Shown: piece by piece, positions 1 to 45,625 of the stretch | Layout of the letters: each line of letters begins with the position of its first letter | Position numbering within the stretch: the first letter of the stretch is position 1 | Assembly: GCA_038087875.1 (NCBI GenBank) | Contig: CM075989.1 | Span: forward strand, 13,518,001-13,582,000 | Length of the DNA stretch: 64,000 bases | From: Malacoraja senta | Taxonomy: Eukaryota | Reading direction: 5' to 3' | Position numbers and translations under genes: made by a program | Notes under the pieces: model-generated | The model's input: the letters and a program-made list of their open reading frames with translations, nothing else | The model's database searches: none | Told to the model about the DNA's origin: nothing

Positions 1-150
1 AGTCATACTGTCTCCGCCTACATTCCATCTTTGTCCCACCCCCTCTCCTGACATCAGTCTGAAGAAAGGTCTCAACCCGAAACGTCGCCCATTCCTTCTC
101 TCCAGAGATGCTGCCTACCTGCCGAGTTACTCCAACATTTGGTGTCCACC
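1..150 (+). mobile_element. Penelope-like element 3' terminal repeat fragment with minimal hammerhead core
   Basis: Nearly the same sequence as 39901-40045, which ends the RT/GIY-YIG Penelope copy. CTGAAGA at 59-65 and GAAACGTC at 79-86. Confidence 0.75.
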
Positions 151-943
151 CATGGTTTAGATGTGTTCGGCTGTGCACCCACATCAACTCCACAAACTCA
201 GTCTTTTCAGAAGTTTATTCACAGACAACTAGAAGTAAAGTATTTGTTTAGTTAGTTTGTCTTTGACCACTTACTGTGAGGAGGGAGAACAGATGCCATC
301 CCAAGTTTAGACATGCTCGGCGGGTAAGTGGGCGAAGACTCGGGAAGTGGGAATCGCCCATTTTATGTCAGGTCGGCACAATTGGCTGAATTGTCTCCTT
401 TGTCCAGCAAAGTTTTCAAAATGAAAGACATTTGGGATAATTTTGTTCAATATCTAACCAGAGGCATAATTTCAGATTAATGGAAAGTTACCATCGTGTC
501 CTATGAGTGATACCAGCTATAGGAAGTCCCTTTGTTGGGGAGATGGGCAGTCCACCCTGAGCCAGGCCCTGTGCTGCTCATGGCTGCACCAACTCAGGTC
601 CCACCAGCAGAGGGTTTGGGGCAGCAGCAAGAAGCCAATGTTCAGTCACATTTGCAAAAGATGGAAGCCAAGGCCAGCTGAGAAGGTACATTCCCCCCAA
701 AGAAATCCTTCCCCAACTTTCCCTCAATCTATTCTTTGCACAAATTACGGACAGTTTGGTTCAATTATTCCAAGATGGATTGTTGAAAGGTCATTGCAGT
801 TAGTCAGTGCCTGGGTGTGTACTAGAACAGTCACGTCCGGCCACTGAGTGGGAGAAAATCAGGGAGAAAGGCAGAGATGTATCGTCGACCGAGCAGAGTA
901 TGTCAGGTCTGAGAGCTGGACACTGGGAGGGGTCGCGTGGTAC

Positions 944-1066
944 CTGCAGCACTCCACCCCCACGGCTGTTGGGGTGATGGTGTAGGAAGTGATCAGGGAG
1001 CCCCAGCATCACCGCCAGCCAGTCCATCATGCTTATCTCCAGCTCGATGCAGGCGCAGCTCGAGGC
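944..1066 (-). CDS. HDC: Isolated histidine decarboxylase-like exon (equivalent to human HDC exon 4); possibly a pseudogene remnant
   Basis: 123-nt exon with CAG acceptor and GTA donor. Encodes [41 protein letters not shown]; recalled human HDC is [47 protein letters not shown] is HDC-like rather than DDC-like. Confidence 0.85.
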
Positions 1067-1301
1067 CTGCATATCAAAAACAGTCCATCAGTGATTCCAC
1101 GAATATTCAGGGCAGAGATTCCCAGAGATTTACCACCCTCTTCAAAAAGTCCCTACACTGATCTCAAGTGTCACTGATCTCTTAACAGATATTGGTCCTG
1201 ATTACTATAGGGAGGTTACATGAAAACAGTTGATTTCCCAAGACTGGAGTGGGGTGCTGGGTGCTGGGTGTGGGCTGCTGGGGGTGGGGTGCTGGGGGTG
1301 T

Positions 1302-2518
1302 ATTTTCCCAGATTACACCGCAGCGGTGGCTAAAAAGTGAGCGGCCTTCCATGAAGTTAAGCGGCTACTCCGGACCTGCCAGGGCATAAAGTTTGGAATC
1401 CTGTACCCTGCGACTCTCCGTATCTCTTGTCGACCGGCCAAGATAAGCGGTTTGGAGACCCGTCGGAGGCGGTGGACTACATCAGGAAGAATCTTAAGCC
1501 CCAAGACTGAGATATCGACATACTCGTATTAGCGGCTAACTGGTGTTGGCTAACCAGCACTGATAGCCAAGTGCTGGCAGCTAGTGCAGCGGACTGGCAA
1601 AGAGTCGAGTTGTAGGGTAAAGTTATGTTTCGAGTTTGACTTTATTTCAGTATTCAACTATCATATTCCCAAATTTACATGTAATGTTGCCTTTATTGTT
1701 TAATACAGATGTGTTTCAATAATGACTAATCCATCTGAAAAATATTTATTTTATATTCTATAAGGACACTTATTGTTTGGAAATTATCCTGATGACCGAG
1801 TTTCACAGACCTATAAGGGGACTGCTATGATAACTGATGTACAGAGGTTAATGCACATATTTTTCAATCAGAAATATTGTAAGTTCATTGTAATATAATC
1901 TTTATAAGATTATAGTTCACCCTGTGTAGGGCTTATTGTTAGAGGTTTTTTTTAATATGGTTATTTGCTACGTTACATTGGCAGTGGGGAATGCGATCTC
2001 TAGGGTACTGGTAGATCAGCAGTGGTTTTTAAGGCTCTGTTTTTTGTTTGTAGGCAGGGACTTTATTGTTTTTTTACTATTTTACTACCCTGTAAAAATT
2101 GGATGAAAACAAAATAAGGACTACGTTTGCTTTTCGAGTTGGAATATAAAGGGAATTAATAATCCAGCAGGGTCTTTGAACATTTAAAATTTCTGAAATC
2201 TGATATTATTTTCCTTCAGGAAACTCACCTCCGATCAAGTGAACATGTGAAATTGAAAAAAGCCTGGATAGGTCAAATATTCTGCTCCAAAAATGAGTTT
2301 AGATCACGAGGCACAGCTATTTTAATCAGGAAGGGGATTCCAGTCATCCAATATATCGACCATCACCGACCCCAGGAGAAGGTTTGTAGTTGTAACATGC
2401 AATCTATATGGCACACAGGTTGCACTAGCCAATATATATGGACCAAATTGGGACGACCCATCATTTTTCTCTAGCTTCATAACATCCCTCCCAAATCTCA
2501 AAGGCCACCAACTGATAT
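1302..2518 (+). mobile_element. Degenerate L1 LINE, 5' part (ORF1 C-terminus, spacer, ORF2 endonuclease N-terminus)
   Basis: ORF1 IFPDYTAAVAKK*AAFHEVKRLL...GIKFGILYPATLRI. Endonuclease motifs SWNIKG, DIIFLQETHL and ANIYGPN. Stops and frameshifts present. Confidence 0.9.
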
Positions 2519-3311
2519 TGAAAAAGTTACTTTTATAACTACTAAACCAGGTTCGCTTCTCAATAAACAGACACCACACAAACTGTTTGGTAGACCAGTT
2601 CAAAACTTTACTTAACATCGGCCGATGGAAGGGAGCGAGAATTCCAGCTAAGTGACCAATGTAGACACTCGACTGTCCTCGGTCCCCTTCTCTGAACAAC
2701 AGAATTACATCGCATTATATAGTGTTTCTTTGTCACATTAGCACATTCCACAGACATTAGTCGTGGTCAGAGGTACAGGAAAAGGCATCACATCAAAGGC
2801 CTTTTGTTTACAGGTTATGATATACTAAAAACATTGGCCATTTGTTTTAGGTCATTTTATCTTCAAAGAGATCACCCTAGCTCGTTCGCTGTTTCCTCTC
2901 TGTCACTTGGTCCTTCATAAACATAGGCCATTTGTTTTATGGCATCTTATCTTTCCACTTCCCTGGATCCTCTCTCATCACTTCGCCCCTCCTAAACATT
3001 GGTCATTTGGTTTACGGCATCTTACTTCAAAGATGTGACTAGCTGTTTCTCTCTTCCTTTATTGCCTCCTCCCCCAGAAACATTGGTCATTTGGTTCATG
3101 GCATCTTACTTCAAAGATGTGACTAGCTGTTTCTTTCTCTGTCACTTCCTCACTTGGGAGACAATGTTATGGTATTTATTATCTCAATACCCCAAAACCC
3201 GAGGCAACTTAACTTGCCTTTCTGTATTATTCTACTGGAGAAAAGCCTGATTTGAGACTAAATATAAGCTGTAAGCTTTTCTTATATTTTTAACATAATT
3301 CAGCTTTATCA
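2519..3311 (-). repeat. 3' LTR of the ERV
   Basis: Direct repeat of 7157-7949. Differences seen by eye at 2763/7401, 2884/7522 and 2952/7590. Confidence 0.95.
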
Positions 3312-3323
3312 TTCCATCCTTTT
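3312..3323 (-). other. Polypurine tract of the ERV
   Basis: Minus strand AAAAGGATGGAA directly precedes the TG of the 3' LTR. Confidence 0.7.
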
Positions 3324-3574
3324 ATCAAAATCTTGATAATAACTACAGTCCTTGCCGAGTACATACGAAAGACCATAAGCATCTCATCAGGCAAATTATC
3401 TCACTGTCTGTAGTCAGGGTATCTTTGCTGCATTTGTCATGTTTGACTCCAATCTTGTTTAAAAGGATGTGTGTACCATCCTTTAAATGTGGGTTAGTCC
3501 GCAAGTTTGCCATTCTGAAGAAAGTCCAGTCCATGTGGGCCACCCCAGAATAAAAGAGGGTCAATAGCTCCACA

Positions 3575-3850
3575 AACCGTTCACAGTCAATCAAATGTAT
3601 CCAACGACGACGATCTTCAATCTTCACAGCAGTTTATGTTGTTGATAGCACTTGGTTTTTCCTTTCAACACAATCTCAATTTCTTCTTGTCCCAGCACAT
3701 GGTCATTTTGTAGCCTTTATGGACTCGTCCCTGTGCTCACAGCTCCTCTAACCTGGGAATGCAGATCTGGCAAGACCTGGGTTAATTGCTGTCCATACAT
3801 AATTAGTTAATTGCCCAGGGCCTGTAGTTGGCTTCCCCCCACTCTCCAGG
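3575..3850 (-). pseudogene. Degenerate C-terminal part of retroviral integrase
   Basis: QVLSTT*TAVKIEDRRRWIHLIDC matches the class I (GPY)xVLLTTxTAVKxxxxxxWIH motif. LHSQV lies upstream. Confidence 0.7.
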
Positions 3851-4930
3851 GGGTGGGCACAGCAGCCTTTCCTGTATCAATAAAAAAGTTGTAAATTCTG
3901 TTTCTCTGGCTGCAGTTGAATGACCCCAATCTACTCTGAAGAAGGGCTTCGGCCCAAAATGATGCCTATTTCCTTCGCTCCTTTGATGCTGCTTCATCCC
4001 CTGAGTTTCTCCAGCACTTTTGTCTACCTTTGATTTTCCAGCATCTGCAGTTCCTTCTTAAACACTTCTCTGTGAACTTATTCTTTAATCCGATTATATC
4101 TGAAGAGGCTCTCCCCACCTAAATATTAAATTCTCCAAATATGTTCTCTTCCCCAATCTACTTATCTTCTCACCTTTTATCCCTCATTATGAGATCCCTC
4201 AAACCCCCTTTTGTAAGCCATAAGACAATTTTACATGTACATTCATTTCCCTTACACAGCACATGCTTCAACATCTTTGTTCGTCTGCAGACCGTAATCT
4301 TGCTTCATTTGCATTTTAAAGGACAACCTCTGTTATCACATCAAAACAATCTTTCCCAAAAGAACTCACTCAGAATCAGTAATCAATAATACATTTTCTT
4401 TTTCTCTGTAATTTTGACATTTCCAATCTCATTTAACACTTTAATTGGGATGAGTCTCTTTTTGAACTCGGCTCAAAAGATTTATAACAACCAACACATT
4501 TTATCATTTGAGTATAGCTCCACCCCCCATTCATGGCAGTGTCTTAAAGGAACACACCATAACCTGCCTGTTCATTTGCATTTTAAAGGACAAACTGTTC
4601 TTAAAGGGACTCACACCTTTGCTCATTGCTTCAAATTTCACACATTCCACATAGAAAAAACATTGTTTTACAAGCAGTACATACACACAAAAAAATTGTT
4701 TTACCAGCAGTATATAATATTTCATCTTCAAAGACGTCTCTTTGTAATTTACTTTCCCTTTTTCTGACAAGACTTCTGTTTACCAGAATCCTGGTTACCT
4801 AACCCTAATTGGACTTTGATCCAGATCATGATTAGTCAGACTCCCCGTGACTTTTCAGTCTCCCTATCCTATCCTCATTTCTCCACCGAATTTGTCTTCA
4901 TCCCCAATTTTTCTATAACATAGTTGCTTG

Positions 4931-5545
4931 TCAGAAAAAGGATTCCCCCGGGGTAATTTTGTTTTGCAATGCCCCATAGGCTCTTTCCACCATCCCAGAT
5001 GCCTGTGGGTGATGTACACAGTGAAATTGCTGTCGGATATAAAAATGTGTACATATTTCCTTATTAATAGTGGCAATAAAATGGGGACCATTGTCCAAGC
5101 TTATGACAGTAGGTAGGCCAAACCTGGGAATAACTTCCCTTAACACCAATGTTACTGTAGTCTTAGCAGTATCATTAGTGGTTGGTAGAGCTTCAATCCA
5201 CCTGCTAAATAAATCTAAAATAACTAAGCAATATTTATAACACTGGGCCCTTGGCATTTCAATAAAATCAATCTGTATGCATTCAAACGGTCGTGATGGC
5301 ATTGGTGTCACCCCTGAGGGTATCCTAATTGGTTTGCCTGGATTATTTCGTTGGCAAATTTTACATTCAGAGGCCTGCTTCAGTGCCTCTTGCCGGATTT
5401 TTAGGTGCCACCACGTTTCCTTTGTCATCCTTATCATTCCCTCCTTACCAGCATGGGTAAGTGAGTGAATATATGTTAGTAAAACAGGTAAAAATGCATC
5501 AGATACACCAACTTGTCCAAGCGGGGTGAGCCGAATCAATGGCAC
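4931..5545 (-). pseudogene. Retroviral integrase HHCC zinc finger and DDE core, 3' truncated
   Basis: HSLTHAG...CKICQRNN; PFECIQIDF; LVILDLFSRWIEALP; EVIPRFGLPTVISLDNGPHF; HPQASGMVER. Confidence 0.92.
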
Positions 5546-6482
5546 AGCCCTCTTGTTTCCATAGTTGTTTTGGGTTATCAGAGGCGTCCCTCTGTAATGT
5601 ACATACTTCCCTCATGTTTGGCAGGACCGTTCTATTTGCTAGCATCTGTTTACCTGCTGTCACTAAGCATTTGTATGCATAGGCTGCTTGTTTGGCTACA
5701 CTATCGGCAAATGCATTGCCTTTTGTTATAGGGTCCCCAGCACCAGTGTGTGCAGCACATTTAATAATGGTCAGCTGTTCTGGTATCATCAATGCCTTAA
5801 GCAAATAATGCACAGAAAGGCATTCCCGTGCTCCCAATCCTGGGGAGCTTTGTAAGGTCAGAACTTCAAGGTATAGGGATATTACTGACGGAGCTGTCAG
5901 AGGTAAGTATGCCATCGCTACTGGTAGGACGTAGGGAGGTGGACATCTCCCAGGATTATCTAACTCCTCATCTTCACTACCAAACAGGGTCGTCGTGCCA
6001 GACATGAAGTCTCCTCCAGAGGATTTACCAGTACTGAGGTTATTTTTACTAACCATCACCTGTTGCTCACCTCCTGCCTGTCTCTTAATTATTTTCTCTT
6101 GTTCCTCCGCCCACTGGCATTCTAGTTGCAATACTTTCCATCCTTTCATAGTGCCATCCTTATTTCGTAACTCTATCCCTTGTTTACATGCAGTATCCAT
6201 CCAACTTCGATCTCTACTCTCCTCATGCTTCTTCTCTGCTTCTGCTTTCCACGTTTTAATTCCCTTCTTCCATTTCTTTCCTGCCTTCCTTTCCCATATC
6301 AACATTTCTGCTTTTTTAATTGTCTCGACATTCCATGTGCCCCCTACTGGCCAGGCTTCATCCCCCAACCGTTTGGTCAACTTGTAACTTAACATTCTAA
6401 ATTTCTTATTATACTTAGGATTCAAATAACACATATGTTGGACGGGGGTTCCCCCCTCACTGTTATCCAAAGCATTCCCCAT
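5499..6482 (-). CDS. Chimeric ERV ORF (327 aa): Gag matrix plus PPPY late domain fused in frame to RNase H C-terminus and IN linker
   Basis: Starts MGN (myristoylation-type). Has WPVGGTW matrix motif and CPPPYV, then LLKALMIPEQLTIIKCAAHT...GNAFADSVAKQAA (RNase H). No CA, NC, PR or RT. Confidence 0.75.
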   Translation of the reverse strand: MGNALDNSEGGTPVQHMCYLNPKYNKKFRMLSYKLTKRLGDEAWPVGGTWNVETIKKAEMLIWERKAGKKWKKGIKTWKAEAEKKHEESRDRSWMDTACKQGIELRNKDGTMKGWKVLQLECQWAEEQEKIIKRQAGGEQQVMVSKNNLSTGKSSGGDFMSGTTTLFGSEDEELDNPGRCPPPYVLPVAMAYLPLTAPSVISLYLEVLTLQSSPGLGARECLSVHYLLKALMIPEQLTIIKCAAHTGAGDPITKGNAFADSVAKQAAYAYKCLVTAGKQMLANRTVLPNMREVCTLQRDASDNPKQLWKQEGCAIDSAHPAWTSWCI

Positions 6483-7138
6483 AGCTAGATAGAGAAAAAG
6501 AGAGAGAGAGAAAAAAAAAATAAAAGAAAAAGAAAAAGAAAAAGAAAGCAGACCGCTTGATTCCGAAACGTGCAAAATATATCAACCAGGCCGACTCGCG
6601 ACTCGAGACCCCAGTTTCTCAATTTGGCTGACTGTTTAACTTTGTAATATACAACGCCACTTATTTCTCAATCCGACAACTCCCCGGATGTTTCAATAAG
6701 CCAGACGCACACCTCACCTCCCGTATCTCAACCCGACAAAACACGGATGTCTCAACGAGGCCGATAAGCCCTTAGTAGAGAGAAAAGAAAAAAACAAAGA
6801 GAGATAGACAGAGAGAGAGAAAGAGAAACCACTCACGTCCTTCTTAACAAGATACACAAGCCCTTCTTAAAAATACAAGCACAAGTCTGTCTTAAAAATA
6901 CATACACAATCCCCACTAAAAAAACCCTATAAAGCCCAACTGGTCTTACCTTAGTCTGTTGCTAAGAACCTCGGCAGGGAACCTGGATCAACCTCTGATG
7001 AAGGATCACAGACGTTCCCGGGAGTTTCTAGGGAGTCGGTCTTACAAGGGGGCCGATAGAGCTCAGTTATCTCCCTTCCAATCCCGGCAACCTCTGCAAC
7101 CTCTTGCACAGTCAGCCGTTGATGTGGTCCCAGCGAGG

Positions 7139-7155
7139 CCTGCATAACTACGCCA
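7139..7155 (-). other. Primer binding site, tRNA-Ser-like
   Basis: Minus strand TGGCGTAGTTATGCAGG lies 1 nt after the 5' LTR. It is an imperfect complement of the recalled vertebrate tRNA-Ser 3' end CCTGCCGACTACGCCA. Confidence 0.75.
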
Positions 7156-7156
7156 A

Positions 7157-7949
7157 TGAAAAAGTTACTTTTATAACTACTAAACCAGGTTCGCTTCTCA
7201 ATAAACAGACACCACACAAACTGTTTGGTAGACCAGTTCAAAACTTTACTTAACATCGGCCGATGGAAGGGAGCGAGAATTCCAGCTAAGTGACCAATGT
7301 AGACACTCGACTGTCCTCGGTCCCCTTCTCTGAACAACAGAATTACATCGCATTATATAGTGTTTCTTTGTCACATTAGCACATTCCACAGACATTAGTC
7401 ATGGTCAGAGGTACAGGAAAAGGCATCACATCAAAGGCCTTTTGTTTACAGGTTATGATATACTAAAAACATTGGCCATTTGTTTTAGGTCATTTTATCT
7501 TCAAAGAGATCACCCTAGCTCTTTCGCTGTTTCCTCTCTGTCACTTGGTCCTTCATAAACATAGGCCATTTGTTTTATGGCATCTTATCGTTCCACTTCC
7601 CTGGATCCTCTCTCATCACTTCGCCCCTCCTAAACATTGGTCATTTGGTTTACGGCATCTTACTTCAAAGATGTGACTAGCTGTTTCTCTCTTCCTTTAT
7701 TGCCTCCTCCCCCAGAAACATTGGTCATTTGGTTCATGGCATCTTACTTCAAAGATGTGACTAGCTGTTTCTTTCTCTGTCACTTCCTCACTTGGGAGAC
7801 AATGTTATGGTATTTATTATCTCAATACCCCAAAACCCGAGGCAACTTAACTTGCCTTTCTGTATTATTCTACTGGAGAAAAGCCTGATTTGAGACTAAA
7901 TATAAGCTGTAAGCTTTTCTTATATTTTTAACATAATTCAGCTTTATCA
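7157..7949 (-). repeat. 5' LTR of the ERV
   Basis: 793-bp repeat adjacent to the PBS. TATATAA on minus strand at 7353-7359, with tandem repeats upstream in U3. Confidence 0.95.
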
Positions 7950-7953
7950 ATAT

Positions 7954-10900
7954 TAGGGGGGGGGGGGGGGTTTAATTGTGTATTACATCCTTATTTGGAC
8001 AGACCCAACCCAAGACCTAATAGTAAAATTTCAAATTCTGGTGCTGTTATCAATTCATTTATAGAATCCTATACACTTTTTGACCCCTGGAGAAGAAATA
8101 ACCCAAAAACAAAACAATATTCCTTTTTTTCCCCAGTACACCATTCTTATTCAAGAATTGATTCTTGTAGATAGTAGGATCCTTTCCATGGTTAAGGGGA
8201 GCCAGTATAACAGTATTGTTATTTCTAACCACAGCCCTGTGCAACTAGATATAGGCTTCCTAGACTGCCCTAGACCTCGACGCACTTGGCAGTTTGGTCC
8301 TCTGTTGCTATCTAGGGAGTCCTTCAAAAGATTTCTTTCTCAACAAATTTGGAAATTAATAATACTCCGGACATGCACTTAGCGACTATCTGGGAGGCTC
8401 TTAAAGCCTACCTTCGAGGCCAGATAATCTCATATACAGCATAGGAGAGGAAGAAATATAAACAACGTCTGACAGAACTGTCCCACAGTATAGCAGAAAT
8501 AGACCGTTTGTATGCCAATTCGCCAACACATGAAGTTTACAAGGAGAAATTATTACTTAAGACGGAATTTGACAATTTATCCACCAGACAAGCAGAACAA
8601 TTAATCTCCAAATCAAAGCAAATTTTCTATGAACACGGAGAAAAGGCAGGAGAACATTTAGCTCACCAGATCAGACAGTCCACAGCCGCCAGTACTATTC
8701 CTAAAATTCTAACATCACCGGGGATAAAGACTACTGATCCAGATGCCATCAATGACCAGTTTAAGCAGTTTTATTTTTCCCTCTATGCTTCAGAACCACC
8801 CAGTGATCTGTCATGTATTCCTGCCTTCTTAGACAGCCTGTACATCCCAGAAATTACTTCAGAGGACCAAGCACAAATTGACAGGGAAGTATCAACCGAA
8901 GAAATATTACCATTAAATCGATGCAGAGCAACAAAGCTCCAGGACCAGACAGTTTCCCAATTGAAATATACAAAGAATTTGTAATCAAGCTGGCTCCAAC
9001 ACTTAAATTGTTGTATCAGGAAATGTTTAGCCAACAGAAACTACCTCAAACAATGTGGCAGGCAACCATATCAGTCCTACTTAAAAAAGATAAAGACCCA
9101 CTATTGTGTGGTTCATACCGCCCTGTAAGCTTGTTGAATTGTGATTATAAAATCCTCACAAAAATTTTAGCCACCTGTCTTGAAACAGTAGTCTCCAAAG
9201 TTATTAACCCTGACCAAACTGGATTCATACCGGGCAGGCAGTCGTTCTATAACATGCGGGGCCTACTTAATGTATTGTATACACCTCACACCACAGAACA
9301 ATCGGAAGTAATTATTACTTTAGACGCCGAGAAGCTATTCGACCGTGTCGAATGGCAATATTTGTTTGCTATTCTCAAACGATTTGGCTTTGGTCCATCA
9401 TTTTTATCATGGATTAAAATATTATATTTTGCGCCAACGGCAGCTGTGCGGACCAACAATATAATCTCTGACTACTTCCAGCTCTATAGGGCTGCAGCCT
9501 TTCTCCCTACTTATTTGATTTGGCAATAGAACCACTTGCTATAGCTCTTAGGACAGAAGATGGTATCAGAGGTATCTTTCGAAGTGGTAAATCTCACAAA
9601 GTATCGCTTTTCACGGACGACCTGCTGGTATATATATCCAACCCAACTGACTCCATACCAAAGCTACTGCATATATTAGAGAATTTTGGCCGCCTGTCAG
9701 GTTATTCGATAAATTACTCAAAGAGCTTGCTTTTCCCAATCAATCACACTGACGCCGACTACTCCAGCTTCCCATTTAAGTTTGAGAAAAATGTATTTAC
9801 TTACCTGGGAATTAAAGTCACCCATACCATGGGAGGTTTACACAACCACAACTTTAAATCATTATTAGAACGAACAACACAGGACTTCAAAAAATGGTCA
9901 ACACTACCACTCTCATTAGTAGGCCGCATCAATATCGTTAAGATGACAGTTTTACCTAGATTTCTTTATCTTTTGCAAATGATCCCCATATTCATACCTC
10001 GGACAACTTTTCAGCAATTAGATAGACTAATCTCATCATTTATTTGGAACAATTCAAATCCCAGGATGAATAAAATATACTTGGAAGTTCCTAAGAAGGC
10101 GGGTGGTCTAGGTTTGCCTAACTTTATCTATTACTACTGGGCTGCAAATATTGTAAAACTTTTACATTGGATATATTCATATGAGAGTAAACAGGGCACA
10201 GACTGGGCACAGATGGAACTCCTATCTGATCCACTACCGAAAATCACCTGCTCACTACCTTATAATCGTAAAATACAAATGACAAACCCGGTGGTTAAAA
10301 CCTTGCTTAAAATATGGCTACAGTTCAGGAAACATTTTGGACTAAAAGGTACCAGCAGGCTTTTCCCGGTGGTATAAATCAATTTTTTACATCCTCCATG
10401 TTAGATACTGCGTTTTCATATTGGCATAGGAATGGACTGGTATATTTTTGTGACTTGTTTACTGACGGAACGGTTACTTCCTTTGAAACGCTTGCTGAAG
10501 ACCACAATATACCCAGATCTAATTTCTTCAGGTATCTTCAAATACGTAGCTTTGCTAAAAAAAAGTGTTTCCCTCATTTCCTTATCTGTCCACTAAGAGC
10601 CAATTAGACACTATTTTGGAGTTGGACCCATTTGACAAGAAACGTGTTTCAGCAATTTACATATTAATACAGGAATTAAAACAGATAACCTGGGACAAAA
10701 CTAAAACGGCATGGGAGAGGGACCTGGGTGTAGAGCTTTCTGATGAGGCGTGGCGAGAGCTTAATTCGTATACACACCTCTTCGCTGTGTATACCCCATG
10801 GGTTGATCCAATTTAAAGTGCTCCACCGTCTTCATTATTCAAGAGACAAACTTGCCAGAATCTTTTCTACCACAGATCCTGGCTGCCCTAGATATTGCCA

Positions 10901-11050
10901 TAGCCCAGCCTCTGTAGGACACATGTTTTGGACATGTCCCTCTCTCAACAGCTACTGGGGTAACATATTTGAGGTATTCTCCCATATCTGCAGGCAGAGT
11001 ATAAATCCTGACTTGCACGCAGCTATCTTTGGAATACCACCCCCAAATTG
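7954..11050 (+). mobile_element. Degenerate L1 LINE ORF2 (rest of endonuclease, RT, C-terminal zinc knuckle)
   Basis: SNHSPV; KAPGPDSF; YRPVSLLNCDYKILTKILA; DQTGFIPGR; LDAEK; SLFTDDLLV; YLGI; GGLGLPN; HMFWTCP. Many frameshifts. Confidence 0.95.
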
Positions 11051-11052
11051 TA

Positions 11053-11055
<3 letters not shown>

Positions 11056-11104
<49 letters not shown>

Positions 11105-11110
11105 TGTGTG
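11056..11110. repeat. (GA)n then (GT)n microsatellite
   Basis: Seen directly at the L1/Helitron junction. Confidence 0.95.
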
Positions 11111-11667
11111 TTTTTTTTTTCATTTTTTTTTTTTCATTTTTCATATCTATGCCAATGTAGCGCTAAAAGTTTTGCATAACCTTACTCAGGTTTTTCCCGT
11201 CATCGATCTTGTCAAGTTTCCTTCAGATTTGATGTTATATTTCATGTTATTGATATTTAAAGGTTTAAAAAAAAGTCGACTTTAAAAAGATTTTTACTGT
11301 TAAATCCTTGCAGTCCCAGCTTACAACAAACTTCCATACAAAGTTGCAATCCAAGAACACTCTGTGCTTCCACCAAGTTTTCACCTGAATGGAATCTCAC
11401 AGTCCCCCGACATTTGCAACAATGTTGCCATCATAGAACACTAACTCCTGCTACTGCCAGTACAGGAGGGGAGGGTCCAGGGGAAGTGGAATTGGAAGTG
11501 CTGGGGGAGGCAGGGGAAGTGGAATTGGATTTTTTTTAAAGTCCAGTGCTGAGGAGGCAGGGGAATGGTGGAATCTTATGTTGGGGAATGGGTTGCGTTG
11601 GGGGACCAGGCCTCCCCTGGGGCCATGGGTGAGTGGTGAAATATTGCGTTGGTCCTACTTGGTCTAG
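11103..11667 (+). mobile_element. Non-autonomous Helitron-like element, tandem copy 1
   Basis: Diverged duplicate of 11668-12296. Ends in CTTGGTCTAG|T. The 5' boundary is approximate. Confidence 0.65.
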
Positions 11668-12296
11668 TATACCATTAAAGTCTTCTATTGTTTCTGTGTG
11701 TGTGTGATGGTATCTACACCAAAAAGGTATACGGTAGCGCTACATTTTTTGCAGAACCTTACTCTGCTTTTTCCCGTCGTTGCCCTTGTCAAGTTTCCTT
11801 CAGATCTGATGTTATATTTCACAAGTTATTAATATTTAATGGTTTAAAAAAGCCAACTTTAAAAAGATTTTTACTGTTAAATCCTTGCAGCCACAGCCTA
11901 CAACAAAATTCCATACAAAATTGCAATCCAGGAACACTCTGTGCTTCCACCTGAATGGAATCTCACAGTCCCCCAATATTTGCAACAATGTTGCCATCCG
12001 AGAACCCTTACTCCTGTTCCTGCCAACGCAGGAGGGGGAGGGGCCAGGGGAAGTGGATTTGGAATTGGAAACGCTGGGTGAGGCAGGGGAAGTGCAATTG
12101 GATTTTTTAAAAGTCCAGTGCTGGGGGAGGCAGGGGAGTTGTGGAATCTTACGTTGCGGGAACGGGTTGTGCTGGGGGATCAGGCCTGCAGTGGGGGCTA
12201 TGGGTAAGTGGTGGAATATTGCGTTGGGGGAACGGGTTGCGTTGGGGGACCAGGCCTCCCGTCTGACCAGGACCCAACTGGTCCCACTTGGTCTAG
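11668..12296 (+). mobile_element. Non-autonomous Helitron-like element, tandem copy 2
   Basis: 3' GGACCCAACTGGTCCC hairpin followed by ACTTGGTCTAG|T. Same termini as the elements at 36520 and 45626. Confidence 0.7.
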
Positions 12297-12839
12297 TAAA
12301 ATATAAAACGCTATACAATGACAATTCTAGATAGAATAAATAGCCAGATTATGTTTCCATTGTAGAGGTGTCTACAATTATACGACATATAATTAAGATG
12401 GGAGGAAGTTTTTAAAGGGGGTAATATATATCTGGAATCTGGAATGAGCTCTGGGAGGAGGTGATGGAGGCAGGAAGAGTAAAAAAAAAGAGGCATTGTG
12501 ATAGGTACTTGAATGAGCAGGGTGTAGTGAGCTACGTAATTAAAACAGGTAAGTTGGATCTGCATGAATAGGCACAATGTTGGGATAGGATGGGGGAGGG
12601 GGAGGCGGGGGAATGGACACCCAGATGGAAAAGCGCTTAGTGTTGCTGCAGCGTCACGCATTTGAATGGCAAGCCGTTGAGTTTGGTCCCTTTCGCCAGC
12701 TGGATGCGGGGGATCGTGCAGGGCGGCACGACACCTCTCCACCCCCATCCTGTCTCCCCGCCACCTCTGTTGGGAGGGTGCTGAGGCGAAGGCCTCGATA
12801 AGATTTCTAAGTTTGGACATCTTCAGGATCCGGTGAAAG

Positions 12840-12895
12840 GTCAGGCGGGGCCGTCAATAGCAGCCAATAGGAGCTGGGACAAGACTATAAAGGGG
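12840..12895 (+). promoter_or_regulatory. GATM: GATM core promoter
   Basis: GC box near 12844, CCAAT 12864-12868 and TATAAA 12886-12891, about 100 nt upstream of the ATG in a CpG-rich stretch. Confidence 0.7.
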
Positions 12896-12988
12896 CGGCT
12901 TGGCGAGAGCTCCGAGCAAGGGAAAGGTTGCTCCGGCTTTAGGCAGCGCGACCGCAGACCAGGAACACGCGGCAGGCAGCGAAGGACC

Positions 12989-13057
12989 ATGATCCGAGTG
13001 AGGTGTCTCCGCGGAGGTAGCAGAGGTGCAGAGTCAGCCCATTTCTTAGGAGCTCTG
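12989..13057 (+). CDS. GATM: Glycine amidinotransferase exon 1 (mitochondrial transit peptide)
   Basis: MIRVRCLRGGSRGAESAHFLGAL, ACCATGA start context, GTCAGT donor, 69 nt. Confidence 0.95.
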
Positions 13058-16000
13058 GTCAGTATGCCCTGTCCCTTCCTCTCGAATGTGCCGATGCAAG
13101 GATCCCAACACCGGCGCTTCGCCTCAAGGCTGCAGTTAGGACAGCAAACAACCGGTCTTCTAACAAAGCGCTGGTTTCAGCATCCTGCCCGGCCCGACAA
13201 ACCTCACCAGGGAAATGTACAGCAAGTTCACAGATTCTAAATTCCACTCGAGATCATACATTTAAAATCGGCTTTGCTGGGGTACAAAATGAGTTTTAGG
13301 AAATTGAAATTAAAGCCAAAACTAAAATTCGCAAAACAGAACGAACGAAATGGTAGTATGTTGAACTCAGTCAAAATCAAACATCTAAAAACTACAAGAA
13401 TAAGTTAATAACGGAAAGAACATCCGAAGAGTGAAACAACAGACCGAATGTTTCTGACTGTAGCGTGTGAGGGTGAGCGTTCACATGCGAACGCTTTGGG
13501 GAAGGTCTGACAACGCAGAGTTGTTTTTTATCATTAAATTATCAATACCAACAATGCACCGTGACAAAACAGTACCCAGGTCAGTGTTGGATTCCGGGGG
13601 CTCGGGAGCACTTCGGCATTTCAGTGCACTTTCCGGCAGCAGTATCTTGAATCCCGACGATTCCCCTGCCGTTGAGTGAGAATTGGCTGACGGCTGGTTA
13701 AATCTGACTGGGACTGAAATTCCCACCCAATCAGTTCATTTCCGATTAACTTTTCATCCGTGTCTCAAATTTCTGGGACAGGTTAACCTGGGGGAATCCT
13801 CTCCTTTATCAAGATTCGCTCTTGAAAGTCTGAGGCAATACAAGAAGCCGATCGCAATTCTTTAAGAATTTAGACTGAAGCTGTTCATTAAAGTATTGTA
13901 TAAATCACACCAGATGTTTGTTTGGACGGGTGGGATTACTTCACGCTGCAATATCTACCATTTACTGTGTTTTGAGACAACTATTTCCTACTTCATGAAC
14001 AAAATCATACCGAGCATTAAAGGAAAAGAAAGGTTTCCATTTCAATAGTGGGGAGAAAACGATCTAGAAAATATTAGCGTTGACAATAACATTTAAGCCA
14101 ACGAGTTGGAAGCGTGGCCAATAATCTAAGGTGGGTGGGGGCACAAGAGTCTAATTAAAGAACAGAAGAAATGAAAACGGCAGCAATTTCACTCAATAAA
14201 CCCAGGATAATTTCTCCAACAAAATCCTGTTAGTGAAGATAGTTGTATTAAACTCTGCATTCATTCAATGACAGTTCGTTTCAGTGTTATGATCTCTGGG
14301 CTAATGGACAATGAATGTTGATTGTGTTCAGTGATAGGAAGGATGCGTTTGGGACCTTGCTTTAATGAACAGACCTTTGGAGAACAGTAGTTCTCCTTTA
14401 TGATAAAACTAAAGATATGATTCAAACGGTCAGTATGGATGCAGAGGATTGAAGGGTACTATTCTGTTCTCTACAACTCCGTGTTTAATGTAACCTTCAC
14501 ATCTGTAGGAATGCAGAGGGATAACAGAAGCTTGTGGAGGAGCCCTGAGAACTTTCATACAATTATGTGCCAGGACGGATTTATTTTGAAGGCCATTCAG
14601 ATATGAGCCAATCTGCTTTCTGTTTAGATATTTTACTTCAATCTGGAATCTGTCCAGTTGTAAACACATTTTCATTCTGCTGGCAGTCTTTAATGCGTTT
14701 AACATCACAAGAAAATGAAAGTGAACTTCAAATGAGAACAATGTGCGAGAGACAACAAATGTTACAAGCGACATTTTGCGTCCAGCGTACCTACGATTAG
14801 GTAGATGTGCCTGGCAGAAACGGCAAATTATTGAACACCAGCTCTGAGCCGAAGTTGTTGCATAACAGGCTACACGTAGTGAAGAAGGAGATCAAGTTAA
14901 CTGAAGCTTCAGTCCCAACATTCTCAGTCCCTGTGGGAATGTATCTCCTCCCAATCTGGCCTAGTTGAGACTGAAGCGTTATCACACGGTGATTTCTAAA
15001 AAATATCTTTTAAGTTAGAACTGCAGAAGTAAATTACCACAACATACTGCTAGGAAAATGTAAACTAAAACAATGCCGCTGTTATTGTTCAATGTGCTGA
15101 TGAGGATTTAATTGTCCTGTATTTTTTCTGGAAGTAACGCTAGGTTTTTCCCTGATTTTCTTTTAGAAAATTGAAACATTAAATGGGAAAGGATAGCCTG
15201 GGTTCTTTTTGAGTAATAAGTTCATAAGTTATAGGAGAAGAATTAGGCCATTTGGCCCATTAAGTTTATGCCATTCAATTATGACTGATCTATCTTTCTC
15301 TCTCAACCCCATTCTCCTGCCTTCTCCCTGTGTACCCCTGACACCCGCACTGAGAAGCTGTCAATCTCCACCTTAAAAATATCCATTCACTTGGCTTCCA
15401 GCCTTCTGTGGTGCTCTGAGTGCTGCTCATACATTCCACTTAGCCTGGCATTCCCTTTCACAAGTCTTGGCCTCACTGCACCAAAAATAGAAATGTCGCG
15501 ACCAGCAATTTCCCTTTAACAGCTGATCCAGAAAAGGTTTGAAAGAAGATATGTCTTTCAGATACACTAGCTGTAATATGAATGACCATAAAAGTTTGAG
15601 TGTACATGAGAAATTATCAGGCTGCAAAGTACTAAAATGCCATTCACTCTTTTTCACTTTCTAGTACAGGGTGGAAACAGACAGCATGTGCAAATACACA
15701 GTGCTGGCAGTGCAATGAACATAATTTATCATTTAGTGCGTGAATAGGGAGATGCAGAATGAGCTTGACATTCTGCCTGAGTGAATAGAATTAATATTAT
15801 TAAACTGATTGAATGTAGAAACCACAATTTTCATTAGTGCAAAATAGACTCTCCACAGCTGTCCTTTAGTGCTGGGTCTTTACGATAGTTGTTAATACAC
15901 TTTATTTCAGCAACCTTCGAATGTAATCTCTGCCATTTCCAGAAGACCAACCTGAGCGGTGGGGAAGAGTAACTCATGGTTTGTACATGGCATATACAAA

Positions 16001-16809
16001 GGTTTATTAATTACAATATATTGATGCGTCAGGATTGGCTTCTAATAACTGAAAATGTCCAGGTTTTAATGTGACTGGGAATTGCCTCCTGCTGCATTGT
16101 CTATGGGTCGCAGGAGGTAAGGATTCCTTTCCAATCACCTCTTCATACTCTAGGAGAAATATCATAAAAGCATCAAAATATTGTGCTGTGTTTTTCATTC
16201 ATGTTGAAAAATTTCATTTATTGCTTGTACAAATATTGGTGGAAAGATTGAAAACAAATGGGTTGACTGATAGTTTTCAACCCAAATATTTACAGGATGA
16301 GGGTAGGTGGGTGTTGGTCAATGCCTAGGTGAGGGTGTGTGCTGGGCAATGTCCAGATGGGGTGCTCGTTTAGCAGTGTCTTGGTGGGACTGGGTGGTGA
16401 CAGAGCCAGGGCAGTAGTGGATATTTGGCAGGGATGGGGGGAGTGGATGGGTGCTGGGAAGTGCGCAGGTGGTGGGCAGTGCAGGGGGGTTGGGGTACTA
16501 AGCAGTACCAGGGTGGGGATGGGAATAGGTGCTGGTCAGTGCCCTGCATGAATGGTATAGGAGGTCATATGAGGTCACACACAGCCATATACTCCCTGGT
16601 TTGTCTATTCCAGCTGTGAAGCTCCCTTCCGCAGAAGCCCAACAATCTACTGTTCCTTATACAATTGTGATGACGTAATTTAACTGGCAGTTCTAACTGT
16701 GCTTGTCCCACTGCCTCGGAAATCCAACGATGGATGAAGGATCCATTTTTAGCTCATGATAGTAGCCAAGTCTCAGCATTTTCTGATGTTTCAGCCTTGT
16801 GTCTTTCAG

Positions 16810-17046
16810 ATTGGACGGGCCGTTGCAGGATGGGTGCAGAAAACGTTCCAAAGCACTCGGGCTGCTGCTGCTGCTACTACAGCTAAGAGTTCCTGTGTTG
16901 CAGATGATGATCACAAGGACCAGGCTACTGATACACTGGCCAAAGAGTGTCCCGTCTGCTCCTACAATGAGTGGGACCCACTTGAAGAAGTGATTGTTGG
17001 GAGACCAGAAAATGCATGTGTACCCCCTTTCACAATGGAAGTGAAG
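16810..17046 (+). CDS. GATM: GATM exon 2
   Basis: [16 protein letters not shown]...[37 protein letters not shown] ends, 237 nt. Confidence 0.97.
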
Positions 17047-18642
17047 GTTTGTATTGAGTCCATGAGGAAAGAGGTCAAGGGAGGTTCACAAATATCTATA
17101 TATTTCTAAATCTCTATAACATCATGCCTCAGCTGCCTACATTCCAATGAAAATAAACCCAGCCTATCCAATCCCTCCTTTAACTATAGTCCTCCATTCC
17201 AGGCAACATCCTGGTGAATTGTCTACACTATCTCTATTGCTGTCACTGCTTCCTGTTGTGTGACAACAAAATTGCACACAATACACTAAATGCATTCTAA
17301 CCAATAGTATGTACAATTGCAACATAACATACCAACTCTTATACTCAATGCCTGTCAATGAAGGCAGGCAGATCAAATTCCAGCTGCGTTTATTTTCTTG
17401 CGCCCCAAGGTTTCTCTGTGCATCATCACTCCCTATGGTCCCTGCATTTACTCTACGTATATCCTACCAGAATTTGACTTCCCAAAATGCATTACCTCAT
17501 ACTTGTCTGGATTAAATACCATCTGCCACCTAATTTTCCAGCTGATCAATGTCCCACTGTATCTTTCCACATCTTTCTATGCTGTCCTTGACACCCAATT
17601 TTCATGTGATTTGCAAATGTACTAATCAGACCACCTACAATCTCATCCATGTCATTTATATATATTCCAAAAAACACTGCAAGTCAGACATCTACTGAAG
17701 CCCAGGGCTAGTGCTGCTAACTAGTGGGTTAATTCCAATTATTAGTGCAGTGATTAATCTCTTACCACTTCAATCAGTTGGAACAAAAATTAAAGCATCA
17801 TCTTACATTATCTTTATTAAAAATATCAAAGAGTTTAAACAAATTAAATAATGTTCAAGAAGTTTCAAATTAAAATGCTTGTTTTAAAAATGCATTCATT
17901 TACTGAATAGCATAATTCTCGGTAACAATTCAGTTGAACTGCAGAAACTGATTTCCATTCATGCTCATAAATAAAAGCTGCGCAGCTGAAGGTGGGGAGG
18001 GGGGTGAGAGTAAGGATGGAGTGAGGAGGTAGGTCAGGATAGGGGTGAGCATGCAGGAGCTGGTGAGGGTGAGGATGAAAGTATGGGTGGGTGTGAGAGA
18101 GTAGGTAAGGATGTGTGTGAGAGTAAGGGAGCATGTGAGAGTAATGGAGCGGGTGAGAGTGAAGATGGGGGTGAGGGGAAATAGGAAAAATGTAGCTGCA
18201 GGTTTGCTTCATTTGATGGACTGTTTTTCTCAAAAAATGAAAAATGTAAGTTGTTATATGGCACCTAGTTCATAAAATAAATTATTTGTGACTGAAGAAT
18301 CTTTTGTGACTTGGATAATGGACCAAATGAGGTAAAGACTAATTACTCTGTTTCTGGTGGAAAAGGTTGAGAGAAGAAATTTGAGCCCAGGAGAACCCCT
18401 TGCTCTGCAAACCCCAGGGCCAACCTTTGACAGAAGCATGATTTTGAAAATCACCTGAAATAATGTTGCACTCCCCCAGCAATAGACTGGAGTGTCAGCA
18501 GAAAAAATATCCTTTGGGAGTGAAACCCCCAAATTGGCCATCAAACCCAGTACCATAGAAATTGATCATTTAATAAAAAATGACAGTTCTCTCATTTCCT
18601 ACTAATTGCAAAGACTGCCCTGATGAACGTTTCCTGTTTCAG

Positions 18643-18838
18643 GCCAATACCTATGAGAAATATTGGCCCTTCTACCAGCAATATGGAGGCCAGAGATTTC
18701 CTAAAGAGCACATAAGCAAAGCTGTTGCCGAGATTGAAGAGATGTGTAATGTACTCCGTGGTGAGGGAGTGGTTGTCAAGCACCCAGAGATTATCAACTG
18801 GTCTGAGAATTATAATACACCAGACTTTAAATCTACAG
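18643..18838 (+). CDS. GATM: GATM exon 3
   Basis: [12 protein letters not shown]...TPDFKST, AG/GT ends, 196 nt. Confidence 0.97.
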
Positions 18839-19169
18839 GTAAATTGATTTTTTATTTGGTTAAAATATTGTCTAAGACAATGAATGATGAATTCAACTTT
18901 AGCTTCTATTTGGTAAGAAATAAAAACAGATACTGCTGTAATCATTTAACAGGTCAGGTAGCATCTGTGGAGAGAGAAACAGAAATGCTTGAAGTTAAAG
19001 ACTCTTTATTGGGTCTTTGACATGAAATGTTGATTGTTTCTCATTCCACAGATGCTGCCTGAACCGTTGAACGTTTCCAGCATTTTCTGGTTTTCTTTCA
19101 GATGTCTACCACCTACAGTTTTTTATTCATATTCAGTAGGTACGAGTGCTTGTTGAGGTGCAGCTAACT

Positions 19170-19668
19170 TTTTTTTTTTTTTTTAATTTTTATTTTATTA
19201 GAAGTAAGTACAATTGTATACAATCATATTTTCATAATACCTTTTATGTACAGCTTCTTATTTAAATTTTTTTTTGAAATAAAGAAGAAAAAGAAAAAAG
19301 TTAGATAATGAAAAATAGAAAAATGTGAGATATATAGTGTGTGAAAAGGAAAAATAAAGAATGAAAAAAGAAAGTTGAGACATAGAAAATAGAAGAAAGA
19401 GAATAAAAGAAAAGAAGAGAAGAAAAGAAAATAGAAGGAGATCATTTATAATCTTGACCATTCGCAGTCACGGATTAGCTTTTACACCTGTTTTGCACCA
19501 TACGTTTCCAAAAAGATGACAAATGGAGACCAACTCGTTATGAATTGGTCAAATTTATCTATTAGGAGGAATCGCATTTCCTCAAGATGTGCGGTATCCA
19601 ACATACTTGCAATCCACATTTTGAGCGTTGGTATTGGTGTATTTTTCCAAAATTTCCAAAATTTCAAT
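19170..19668 (-). mobile_element. 5'-truncated L1 3' end with poly(A) and TSD in GATM intron 3
   Basis: Poly-T at the left end, ORF2 C-terminus KFWKNTPIPTLKMWI...HLEEMRF...WSPF, and TSD AGGTGCAGCTAACT (19156-19169 and 19669-19682). Confidence 0.88.
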
Positions 19669-20249
19669 AGGTGCAGCTAACTCATAAGGACCCATCTCCA
19701 TTTCATCACTTCTTACAAAGGATGTTTGGAGGCTCTGGGTAAACTTCCACCATCCCTATCCACCAACTTTGCTTTCAAAGCAGTTCTTTGCTCCTGACAA
19801 TTTTGAATCCGTCTCTCTGCCACTGCACCCCTGCCAGGCAGTTATTTTGTGAGGTCTGCCAATGATTTAACCACAAAATAAACCAGATGATCACACTTCA
19901 GCTGAACAGCGAATCAATCTACTGCCCAAGCAGAGATTGGTACCACAGGAAATATGTTCTCCCTTTAACCAGGTCCTTTGCAGCAATCGTATTGATGACA
20001 GAAACATAGTGACCAGAGAAGACTATTCGTCTGTAGAGCCTGTTCCATCACAGTATTATATTTTCATGCTCTGAATGTGGGTGTCACTATTAATGCAAGC
20101 AGTTTTTCCTCACATGCTGAAAAACCATTAGACGGGGCTGTTGATGAGGCACCTACTAGAACTGCTATATGTGTGATGTTGGGATTCACTTTTGGCAGGT
20201 ATTGACCGGCCTTTGTGGCATTACTAATTCAGTGAAGTCAAGCAAGGTA

Positions 20250-20950
20250 ACTTTATTAAAGTTTGCTATTGATAAAGTGAGTCATGAGGAAGATGTAGTA
20301 TCTACAAAGAGATATAAACAATTTATGTAAATGGGCAAATGTTTGGCAGATGGAGTATAATGTGGAGAAATGTAAAGCTGTCAGCTTTGGAAGGGAGAAG
20401 ATATATTATTTAAATGGTGTGAAACTATTGAATTCCAGTGTTCAAAGTGAGCTGCATGACTGCATGGATAAAATCCTCATGCAAACAACTTGGAAGACAA
20501 ATGGAACGCTGGCCTTCAGTGCAAAACTAAGATAAAAGAAGATTGATTTTACCACAAATTTATAGGACTTTGAGAGCTCTTCTAGAACTTTGCTTAGGAT
20601 TGGTCTGCTTATTTAAGGAAGGATAATTTGCCTTGGATACAGATTTAGTCTCTGGGTCCAGGTGACTGAGATGATGTTTTGAAACCAAGGAGGATTGACT
20701 GGATGGATGCTGTGAGGGTGCTTGGTAGTGTGCAGAACTTTCAGATGAGCGATCACCAATTTAAGATGGAGATGAGGAGAAATTCTTCTCTCAGATGGTC
20801 GTGAATTCACCACCATAGAAAACTGTAGGAATGGAGTCACTGATTTATTCAGGTCTGGAATAGCAATACTTTTGGTCAACGGGGAGGGGGTGTGTTGGGG
20901 ATTAGTCAGAAAAATGGAATTGAAGTCAATAACCAAATTAGCCATAGTTT
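20250..20950 (+). mobile_element. Old CR1 LINE 3' fragment
   Basis: Degenerate KWA..WQMEYNVEKCK motif and CR1-like downstream sequence. Boundaries approximate. Confidence 0.6.
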
Positions 20951-21385
20951 TACTGACCGATACTACATGGCCCGGGGACTGACTGCTCAAAAGAATCCAA
21001 CAGACTCAATTTTCCAGGTTTCAATTGACCTAGAACCGACAGTCTTTGAGGAGAGACTGCCTTTTACTAAGGTTTAGAACAAATGAGGCAGCAGGTCCCC
21101 TTTTCTCATATCCTGGTCCCTTGAGATGTTCTATGAGCTCTTCAGGGCAGGAAGACACTTCTGGAATGTTTCAAATCAGAGTTCCTCAGCACTGAATCAT
21201 TGTACAGTGGATCATTGTGATAATGGTAATTGGGATATGTGGAGGTGAACTGGAAGTCTTAATATTGATATCCATGATAAACATTAAGGCCTCCCAGCCA
21301 CCCGTCCAATGATAAACTGTTTTCATACTTTGAGTCTCACGGTGTTGCAGTGGACATTGCCCATAAGTTTATTCTCTCCTCTCAG

Positions 21386-21576
21386 GCATGTACGCTGCCA
21401 TGCCAAGGGACATACTGCTGGTGGTTGGCAATGAAATCATTGAGGCGCCGATGGCATGGAGGGCTCGTTTCTTTGAATATAGGGCATATCGGCCACTCAT
21501 TAAGGATTACTTTCTGCGTGGAGCCAAGTGGACAACTGCCCCCAAACCACAAATGTCGGACAAGCTGTACAACATG
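21386..21576 (+). CDS. GATM: GATM exon 4
   Basis: [36 protein letters not shown]...KLYNM, 191 nt, AG/GT ends. Confidence 0.97.
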
Positions 21577-22284
21577 GTAAGTCAGGAGTGGTGCTCTCAA
21601 GTGGGAGGCTCATTGAGGCAGAGTACATCTTACACCAGAATGAATGATCAGGAAGGGAATTCTCTCAAGTCCCAATGTGTGTAAGGGAGTAGGGGTTGGA
21701 GATCTGGGAAGGGGATAAGGAAGAGTCAGGGCTCTAGTCATTCTATGGATGCTATGAGGACATGTTCACCCATAGTATTAAGGACATGTGCACAAGCTTG
21801 ATTACATTCACCTTGTCGGGAGGGGTTGGGGGAGAGGACACTAGTCACAACAATGCTGGTGAAGCCAGTCTCTAATCCCATCGGAGGTATGATCACTAGA
21901 TCTTTGCCTCCAATCTTTCTGCCCAGTTATCTCTTTCTTTCCCAACTGCAATATTTTAAAGTAATTGACTTTAATTTAAAGAAAATATTTTTTTGAAAAT
22001 GCACGAGTTTTCTTGCGAGTTGATTACAGCAGTAACTCAGAAGCAAGCCTTTGATCATTGGAGAGTGACAACATTTTTTAAATCCGCAACACCAGTCAGA
22101 GGCTACAAAACATTCAGCTATGGAAACCTGATGAACTCCCCATCAAAGCAGAATAGTTCCACAGCATGGCACTGGGGGAGGACCTGGAATTTGTGTTCTA
22201 TGGGGAGCGACGTCATGTTTTGCGTTCTGAATGTTGTCTTTGTGCAGTGGGAATCTGGATGTGAGCCAAGTGTTTCTTGTGCAG

Positions 22285-22422
22285 GAGTACCCTATTTTCT
22301 CCGTGGAAGACAGAAACAAGCTGGCTGCTGAAGGGAAATTTGTGACCACCGAGTTTGAACCCTGCTTTGATGCTGCTGATTTCATGAGAGCTGGGAAGGA
22401 TATATTTGTACAAAGGAGTCAG
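22285..22422 (+). CDS. GATM: GATM exon 5
   Basis: [10 protein letters not shown]...[22 protein letters not shown] (catalytic Asp region), 138 nt. Confidence 0.97.
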
Positions 22423-22653
22423 GTAGGCACATTCTGTCAGCTTCACTTTGCCCTCGTCAATGTCTAATTGTTTCAGTATTCCGTCCAACCTTGGCTGGCA
22501 GTATTAGTGAGATAATTGGACATCAGTCGTTTCTCTCATGCAAGTTCTATTCCCACTGCATTCAGCCTAGCCTCTGATTACGTGAATCACCTTTGTTTAT
22601 TGCTCAGATGCATTGTATATTACACAATGTGATGAGATTGTTTTATTTTACAG

Positions 22654-22818
22654 GTGACTAATTTCATGGGGATTGAGTGGATGCGAAGACATCTTGCTCC
22701 GACATACAACGTTCACACCATCTCCTTCAAGGATCCAAACCCTATGCATATCGATGCAACTTTCAATATAATCGGACCTGGTTTGGTTTTATCAAACCCT
22801 GACCGTCCCTGTCATCAA
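22654..22818 (+). CDS. GATM: GATM exon 6
   Basis: [14 protein letters not shown]...[11 protein letters not shown]...RPCHQ (catalytic His), 165 nt. Confidence 0.97.
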
Positions 22819-23256: not shown

Positions 23257-23320
23257 ATCGAGGTCTTCAAAAATGCTGGCTGGACTATCATCTCTCCCCC
23301 TACTCCTCTGATACCAGACG
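23257..23320 (+). CDS. GATM: GATM exon 7
   Basis: IEVFKNAGWTIISPPTPLIPD, 64 nt, AG/GT ends. Not in the ORF track. Confidence 0.95.
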
Positions 23321-45542: not shown

Positions 45543-45625
45543 CTACAATGTCCACTGTTAATAGCCCCTATGATATGATTCACGGCTTCCGCGCAGGATA
45601 CCCAGGAACTAATTGTAAATGTAAA

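Follow-up and report, generated by a model that had tools for sequence, protein, structure and literature searches.

A lone, altered HDC exon beside GATM in a rajid skate suggests a unitary pseudogene formed by deletion at an L1 element

The window analyzed here, meaning the whole stretch of 64,000 nucleotides, contains a single recognizable exon of the HDC gene next to GATM and PDE8A. It is best explained as a unitary HDC pseudogene at the single orthologous locus of a rajid skate, probably made by a deletion at an L1 element, a reading given a probability of about 0.62. The features of the locus are collected in Table 1, where X3 and X4 denote sequencing runs of relatives of the skate.

Read on the minus strand, the exon is free of stop codons and encodes 41 residues. 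Its top protein match is the HDC of Leucoraja erinacea (little skate), with 90% identity, and all 18 of its protein matches carry the names HDC or DCHS. The match to human HDC 4E1O (E=3.6e-17, 63.8 bits) is much stronger than that to DDC (4.9e-6, 29.6 bits), and by these sequence comparisons the exon reads as an HDC orthologue, with DDC and the other group II decarboxylases more distant. Its splice signals are canonical and in phase 0 (acceptor ending in TGCAG, donor beginning with GTACCA), its two edges coincide with the start and end of exon 4 in a bird HDC locus, and its ISMM residues are also present in the HDC proteins of Leucoraja and Amblyraja, which points to a rajid skate as the source of the window. 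The description given in an earlier note on this DNA, a clean and spliceable HDC exon-4 equivalent on the minus strand, is therefore upheld. The window thus agrees with vertebrate HDC (PLP-dependent group II, PF00282; human 4E1O) in the sequence, boundaries and phase of this exon and in the conserved position of the gene beside GATM and PDE8A. Exon 5, if it exists, lies beyond the window edge, as would the rest of exons 5-12, which in a functional HDC include the PLP-binding lysine. Read-through from exon 4 into intron 3 to give a new N-terminus was considered and ruled out, since an in-frame stop is located nine codons upstream, and no Met occurs between that stop and the exon.

Table 1. Features of the window, with positions counted from its first nucleotide
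Feature	Position	Strand	Remarks
HDC intron 4 (part)	1-943	minus	420-943 common to relatives B and C, ~93-95%
End of dispersed repeat within HDC intron 4	1-150		
HDC exon 4 (residues 106-146)	944-1066	minus	open frame, AG/GT ends, P109C and T112I
HDC intron 3 remnant	1067-1245	minus	relatives' contigs match up to 1245 (X3 contig 19) and 1246 (X4 contig 27)
Two short multi-copy repeat pieces in intron 3 remnant	~1101-1160, 1198-1231		depth peaks, loose ends
G-rich minisatellite, GGGTGCT-type	1246-1301		tract at 1249-1300; left breakpoint in or at minisatellite
L1, 5'-cut inside end of presumed ORF1, then ORF2 start (endonuclease)	1302-2518	plus	
Internally deleted LTR element (provirus) in L1 endonuclease region	2519-7949	minus	integrase and RNase H remnants
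L1 ORF2 remainder	7950-11054	plus	several frameshifts and stops
(GA)23, (GT)n, T-rich microsatellite at cut 3' end of L1	11055-11140		candidate right breakpoint
Two tandem non-coding Helitron-like (presumed) repeat copies	11141-12297 (approx.)	plus	84% alike
GATM upstream region and 5' UTR	12298-12988	plus	CpG island, CCAAT 12864, TATAAA 12886
GATM coding span	12989-26152	plus	five exons inspected open, splice ends where read
PDE8A, first exon and later N-terminal exon	34787-60638	plus	gene runs off window

The missing exons were sought in two ways. The tblastn search proposed in the earlier note was carried out with 18 HDC proteins against the window, and exon 4 was the only strong match among the matches listed. 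A set of 12 exon-wise profile HMMs, with exon limits that were first assumed and then checked against the bird locus, was run unfiltered (--max) on six-frame translations in which stops were read as X. These profiles detected exon 4 alone in the window (80.6 bits) and gave every other match a score below 0 bits, with no match in 1067-12990 and no HDC exon signal in the GATM upstream region. As a positive control, the same profiles recovered 12 of 12 exons from the bird HDC locus. Exons 2 and 3 score 120 and 98 bits in that control and would not go undetected, whereas exon 1, with 10 codons, reaches only 8.5 bits, such that a decayed exon 1 could go undetected. Exons 1-4 of the bird gene span 3.8 kb; the sequence outside the repeat block here amounts to just 235 bp beside exon 4 and ~600 bp ahead of the GATM start. 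The earlier claim that exons 1-3 are missing between 1067 and the GATM promoter is confirmed within the window by both searches. A functional gene would be expected to have, ahead of exon 4, a promoter and the three exons that encode residues 1-105, neither of which is present within the window, and the orthologous locus thus bears the disabling lesion expected of a unitary pseudogene, with a candidate right breakpoint.

The surviving exon is itself altered. It was previously noted that the conserved SPACTELE reads SCACIELE, and the alignment bears this out: P109 and T112, as expected of a functional gene, are invariant in 139 of 139 aligned HDC proteins, including 16 cartilaginous-fish records, whereas the window has C and I at these positions. 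The two replacements require at least three base changes, and each of the remaining exon 4 residues is present in at least three intact HDC proteins. Private changes at otherwise invariant columns number 0-4 per 480 residues (mean 1.7) in nine intact cartilaginous-fish HDCs, compared to two in the 41 residues of the window exon, both non-conservative; a rough Poisson estimate for this count is ~0.01, for a choice made post hoc. A general decay of HDC across skates was also considered and rejected, since three intact skate HDCs have only 0, 2 and 1 private changes, all conservative. The contigs of relatives diverge from the window by 4.6-6.6%, and exon 4 has three coding changes where 2.2-3.1 would be expected on this branch for a neutral exon. 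The changes fit an early loss of constraint, though the numbers are small, and the frame and splice sites of the exon are still clean, which counts against the pseudogene reading. In the paralogue DDC, the change A110E, adjoining P109, yields a kcat of 0.0003 per second (PMC10382914), which indicates that the same loop is important in that enzyme. P109C and T112I, along with the lack of exons 1-3 in the window, support the view of the earlier note that this HDC copy is 5'-deleted or decaying. Both codon changes jointly create a direct 8-bp repeat, TCGAGCTG (minus strand), with copies 16 bases apart at window 1041-1063, either by chance or by local template slippage.

Full-length HDC proteins with SPACTELE are found in three other skates, Leucoraja erinacea (XP_055517276.1), Amblyraja radiata (XP_032906412.1) and Rhinoraja longicauda (XP_078283303.1), from which the window differs by lacking exons 1-3 in the interval and by P109C and T112I. 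The intact skate proteins (P0002, P0020 and P0021) have Arg at position 200, where Gly is present in 129 of 139 sequences, and end at approximately residue 480 (skate numbering), lacking the extended C-terminus seen in bony-vertebrate HDC.

The interval between exon 4 and GATM had been described as almost all L1, ERV and Helitron, and ~10,996 of the 11,834 bp in 1067-12900 (93%) are indeed repeat. The name Helitron is our assumption for the two tandem copies, based on their TC...CTAG ends and hairpin, and the 5' remnant of the L1, for which Pfam gave no match, is taken to be ORF1. Excluding the provirus, the L1 is 4.3 kb in length and is cut at both ends. Its ORF2 aligns over residues 9-1187 of the 1263-residue closest relative and stays collinear throughout, including at the provirus, where residue 144 is followed by residue 145 in agreement with a 4-bp target duplication. 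At the 3' end, the last 76 ORF2 residues, the 3' UTR and the tail are all missing, and (GA)23 follows directly. No target duplication of the L1 was found, as 1225-1310 and 11040-11170 have no 6-mer or longer word in common. The provirus LTRs (2519-3311 and 7157-7949) differ at only 3 of 793 positions, while the L1 has accumulated frameshifts and stops, and the provirus is therefore much younger than the L1. Each LTR also contains an internal repeat of ~90 bp in three diverged copies.

Related repeats occur elsewhere in the window. More copies or ends of the Helitron-like family are located in PDE8A intron 1 at 45625-46690 and 36503-36581, and the copy at ~46 kb includes a long C/T-rich tract. 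A 375-codon open frame at 38700-40048 has no Pfam match and looks like a retroelement remnant; the repeat end that follows it is 86% alike to the repeat end at window 1-150. More distant L1 remnants are present on the minus strand at 62899-63831 and 19500-19649.

The proposed history begins with a deletion that would have extended from the G-rich minisatellite in intron 3 to a point close to the GATM promoter, removing exons 1-3 and the HDC promoter. The 4.3-kb L1 piece at the deletion site would be either repair filler or the stump of an older L1 cut by the deletion. The provirus would have inserted into the L1 afterwards, and exon 4 would then have drifted, acquiring P109C and T112I. Residues 1-105 of HDC form the dimer-forming N-terminal part of the enzyme and include residues of the substrate pocket. 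Because these residues are encoded by exons 1-3, no working enzyme would be possible, and a start at Met118/119 would miss the entire N-terminal part. We infer that exons 1-3 were deleted and not displaced, that events ran in this order, that the lesion is fixed in the species and that histamine synthesis was lost; the last of these is plausible.

The L1 resembles the endonuclease-independent insertions compiled by Sen et al. 2007, which measure 34-4410 bp and patch double-strand breaks (PMC1920257). Deletions of 5-14,534 bp accompanied 18 of the 21 loci in that compilation, and one of these removed a gene (PMC1920257). Like those elements, the L1 in the window is 3'-truncated, without a poly(A) tail or a target-site duplication, has simple repeats at its junction and falls within the size range; unlike them, it is old, as shown by its frameshifts and stops. 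Sen et al. 2007 also state that later deletions may mimic the anatomy of a non-classical insertion (PMC1920257). An endonuclease-independent L1 insertion would leave the same anatomy as an older L1 that was subsequently cut by a deletion, and the two cannot be told apart here.

Contigs from sequencing runs provide a second view of the locus. In a comparison of 24 runs by words, the two runs of organism A (X1 and X2), which is the same organism as the window, contained 0.89 and 0.70 of the words, compared to 0.13-0.20 for the runs of seven other labelled organisms and 0.00 for run X24 of the same study. Contigs from four of these runs were aligned to window 151-1650 at 85% likeness; reading covered 88% of X2, and contigs that resemble human DNA are removed silently. 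The assembly itself may have been built from X1, and X1 and X2 may come from one animal, given that the same two alleles are present in both at 325-551. Contig 6 of X1 matches 1189-1331 without a difference, passing through the minisatellite into the L1, although only 30 of its letters fall within the L1, one below the 31-letter bridging rule, and it ends where entry into a repeat would also halt a contig. The contigs of relatives B and C match the window to 1245 and 1246; the 696 and 126 letters that follow are unlike it and do not join back onto the L1 after 1245-1246. The left break is placed at the G-rich minisatellite because the relatives' contigs stop matching at this point. Other L1 copies in the runs diverge from the window before 1302, and from these alignments organism A seems to be alone in having the L1 junction.

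A single unbroken 697-bp contig spans 522-1218 in each run of organism A (X1 contig 5 and X2 contig 14). The two contigs differ from the window at 2 and 6 sites, none of which are within exon 4, and the same altered exon 4 letters are present in the contigs of both runs. Intron 4 of organism A has two deep haplotypes over window 325-920, which differ, for example, by six substitutions and three gaps in 125 bp.

The most serious competitor to the preferred reading, though an unlikely one, is a polymorphic null allele, in which the assembled haplotype truly carries the deletion while another haplotype retains exons 1-3 and a working gene. The two deep haplotypes are compatible with this explanation, as are eight sites (419, 468, 476, 490, 642, 750, 890 and 908) at which the non-window letter in X1 or X2 is the letter of relatives B and C. 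The depth of X2 also falls from 48.7 on exon 4 to 26 at 1251-1300, approximately half, and X1 includes a contig of depth 3 with a different minisatellite (joint 1289 to 1270), from which a second haplotype may lack the left junction. An intact allele could furthermore hide among the contigs, since simple SNP bubbles collapse in them. However, contig 14 of X2 has the non-window letter at all six of its listed differences and yet retains C109 and I112, so that the other haplotype probably carries P109C and T112I as well. The C>G change needed for a Pro codon at 1056 was found in neither X1 nor X2, and no second record was found on exon 4 at 85% likeness or above among the contigs of these runs, which show presence and not absence.

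An assembly error, in which two L1 copies, or an L1 and a (GA)n tract, were misjoined and exons 1-3 really lie between them, is improbable. Such an error would account for an L1 that stops abruptly at a microsatellite without a target duplication, in an interval that is mostly repeat. It is difficult to reconcile with the collinear ORF2, including its continuity across the provirus, and with the presence of the left junction in the run contigs, and it leaves unexplained the two changes of invariant residues that are observed in both runs.

An intragenic inversion or translocation is given similarly poor odds. In this case, a break in intron 3 would have separated surviving exons 1-3 from exon 4, and the gene would be dead regardless. 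The possibility arises from gene order in other vertebrates, and its assessment depends on the normal orientation of HDC relative to GATM. GABPB1 and HDC lie in tandem in the human genome, and this layout at first implied that HDC points to GATM, which would make exon 4 inverted here. The order in chicken is GABPB1, HDC, GATM and PDE8A, given without strands (PMC13018949 Table 5, PMC7597553), and in combination with a tandem arrangement it likewise directs HDC towards GATM. The HDC-GATM strand is not given in the gene lists found or in the supplements of two chicken papers, and the text of PMC6443941 contains nothing on synteny.

Two observations argue against an inverted exon. First, on a bird contig (L023) an SLC27A2-like gene is positioned tail-to-tail with HDC, making SLC27A2 the 3' neighbour of HDC. 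Second, little-skate promoter anchors, defined by H3K4me3 HiChIP and assigned to genes, place Pde8 at 11.21-11.22, Gatm at 11.23-11.24 and Slc27a2 at 11.27-11.30 Mb on one chromosome, with no Hdc row among the rows listed (PMC10115646 SI Table 10). The Slc27a2 promoter is therefore located 30-70 kb beyond the 5' end of GATM, which leaves room for HDC and the body of SLC27A2, and the spacing of PDE8 and GATM is ~20 kb, compared to 22 kb in the window. These arrangements suggest by analogy that HDC normally faces away from GATM (head-to-head), as in the window. Because the normal orientation of HDC appears to be the same as that found here, exons 1-3 were probably deleted and not inverted. The bird contig (L023:2922-20108) comes from a metagenome, represents host DNA and includes a complete HDC; it was the one recognizable vertebrate HDC in a scan of 79 metagenome loci, among which neither a set of four in-frame GATM pieces nor a single PDE8 piece was found at any locus. 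A tblastx comparison of the whole window with L023 returned exon 4 only.

The suggestion in the earlier note of a partial duplicate is not supported and is very improbable. Under this reading the exon would belong to an additional, decaying copy, and the genome would have an intact HDC at another site. A copy could be concealed by the contig filters or in the 12% of X2 that was left unread, but each run has one unbroken contig over exon 4 and no other record at 85% or above, the depth in the exon bin equals that of the single contig and therefore no second copy aligned there, the locus is at the conserved HDC-GATM-PDE8A position, and both introns flanking exon 4 match the relatives' contigs.

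Unitary HDC pseudogenization by deletion thus remains the preferred reading, and as a type of event, a repeat-associated deletion that yields a pseudogene is ordinary and well known; the affected gene is the unusual part. A close parallel is provided by the gastric genes of stomachless fishes (PMC10991444), which are likewise single-copy unitary pseudogenes disabled in place at a syntenic locus; hdc and histamine have 0 occurrences in that study. HDC is the rate-limiting enzyme in the making of histamine, with one orthologue in zebrafish (PMC5515482), and a 2022 review describes histaminergic cells as uninvestigated in sharks (PMC9385951). No vertebrate in which HDC has been lost naturally was found in the literature searched, which covers subscription journals only to a small extent. 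HDC knock-out mice have a lasting loss of histamine synthesis with mild effects. Zebrafish that are hdc-null show largely normal sleep/wake behaviour (PMC5334454), and by analogy the loss of HDC may therefore be tolerated. Both of these animals are engineered mutants, whereas the skate is a wild lineage.

The skate may thus be a natural histamine knock-out. It is an even bet that it represents a wild jawed vertebrate without its only HDC, in a lineage that, in contrast to Leucoraja, Amblyraja and Rhinoraja, does not itself produce histamine, and that the loss is old enough for two deeply diverged haplotypes to have it in common. Such a loss, if true, would surprise specialists. If it is fixed, the skate and its intact relatives would test the need for home-made histamine in the acid secretion, inflammation and arousal of cartilaginous fishes, and would also allow a test of whether the histamine receptors and HNMT decay alongside HDC. 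A natural knock-out with close intact relatives would then be available for examining what roles histamine plays in elasmobranchs, whether in the stomach, in mast cells or in the brain.
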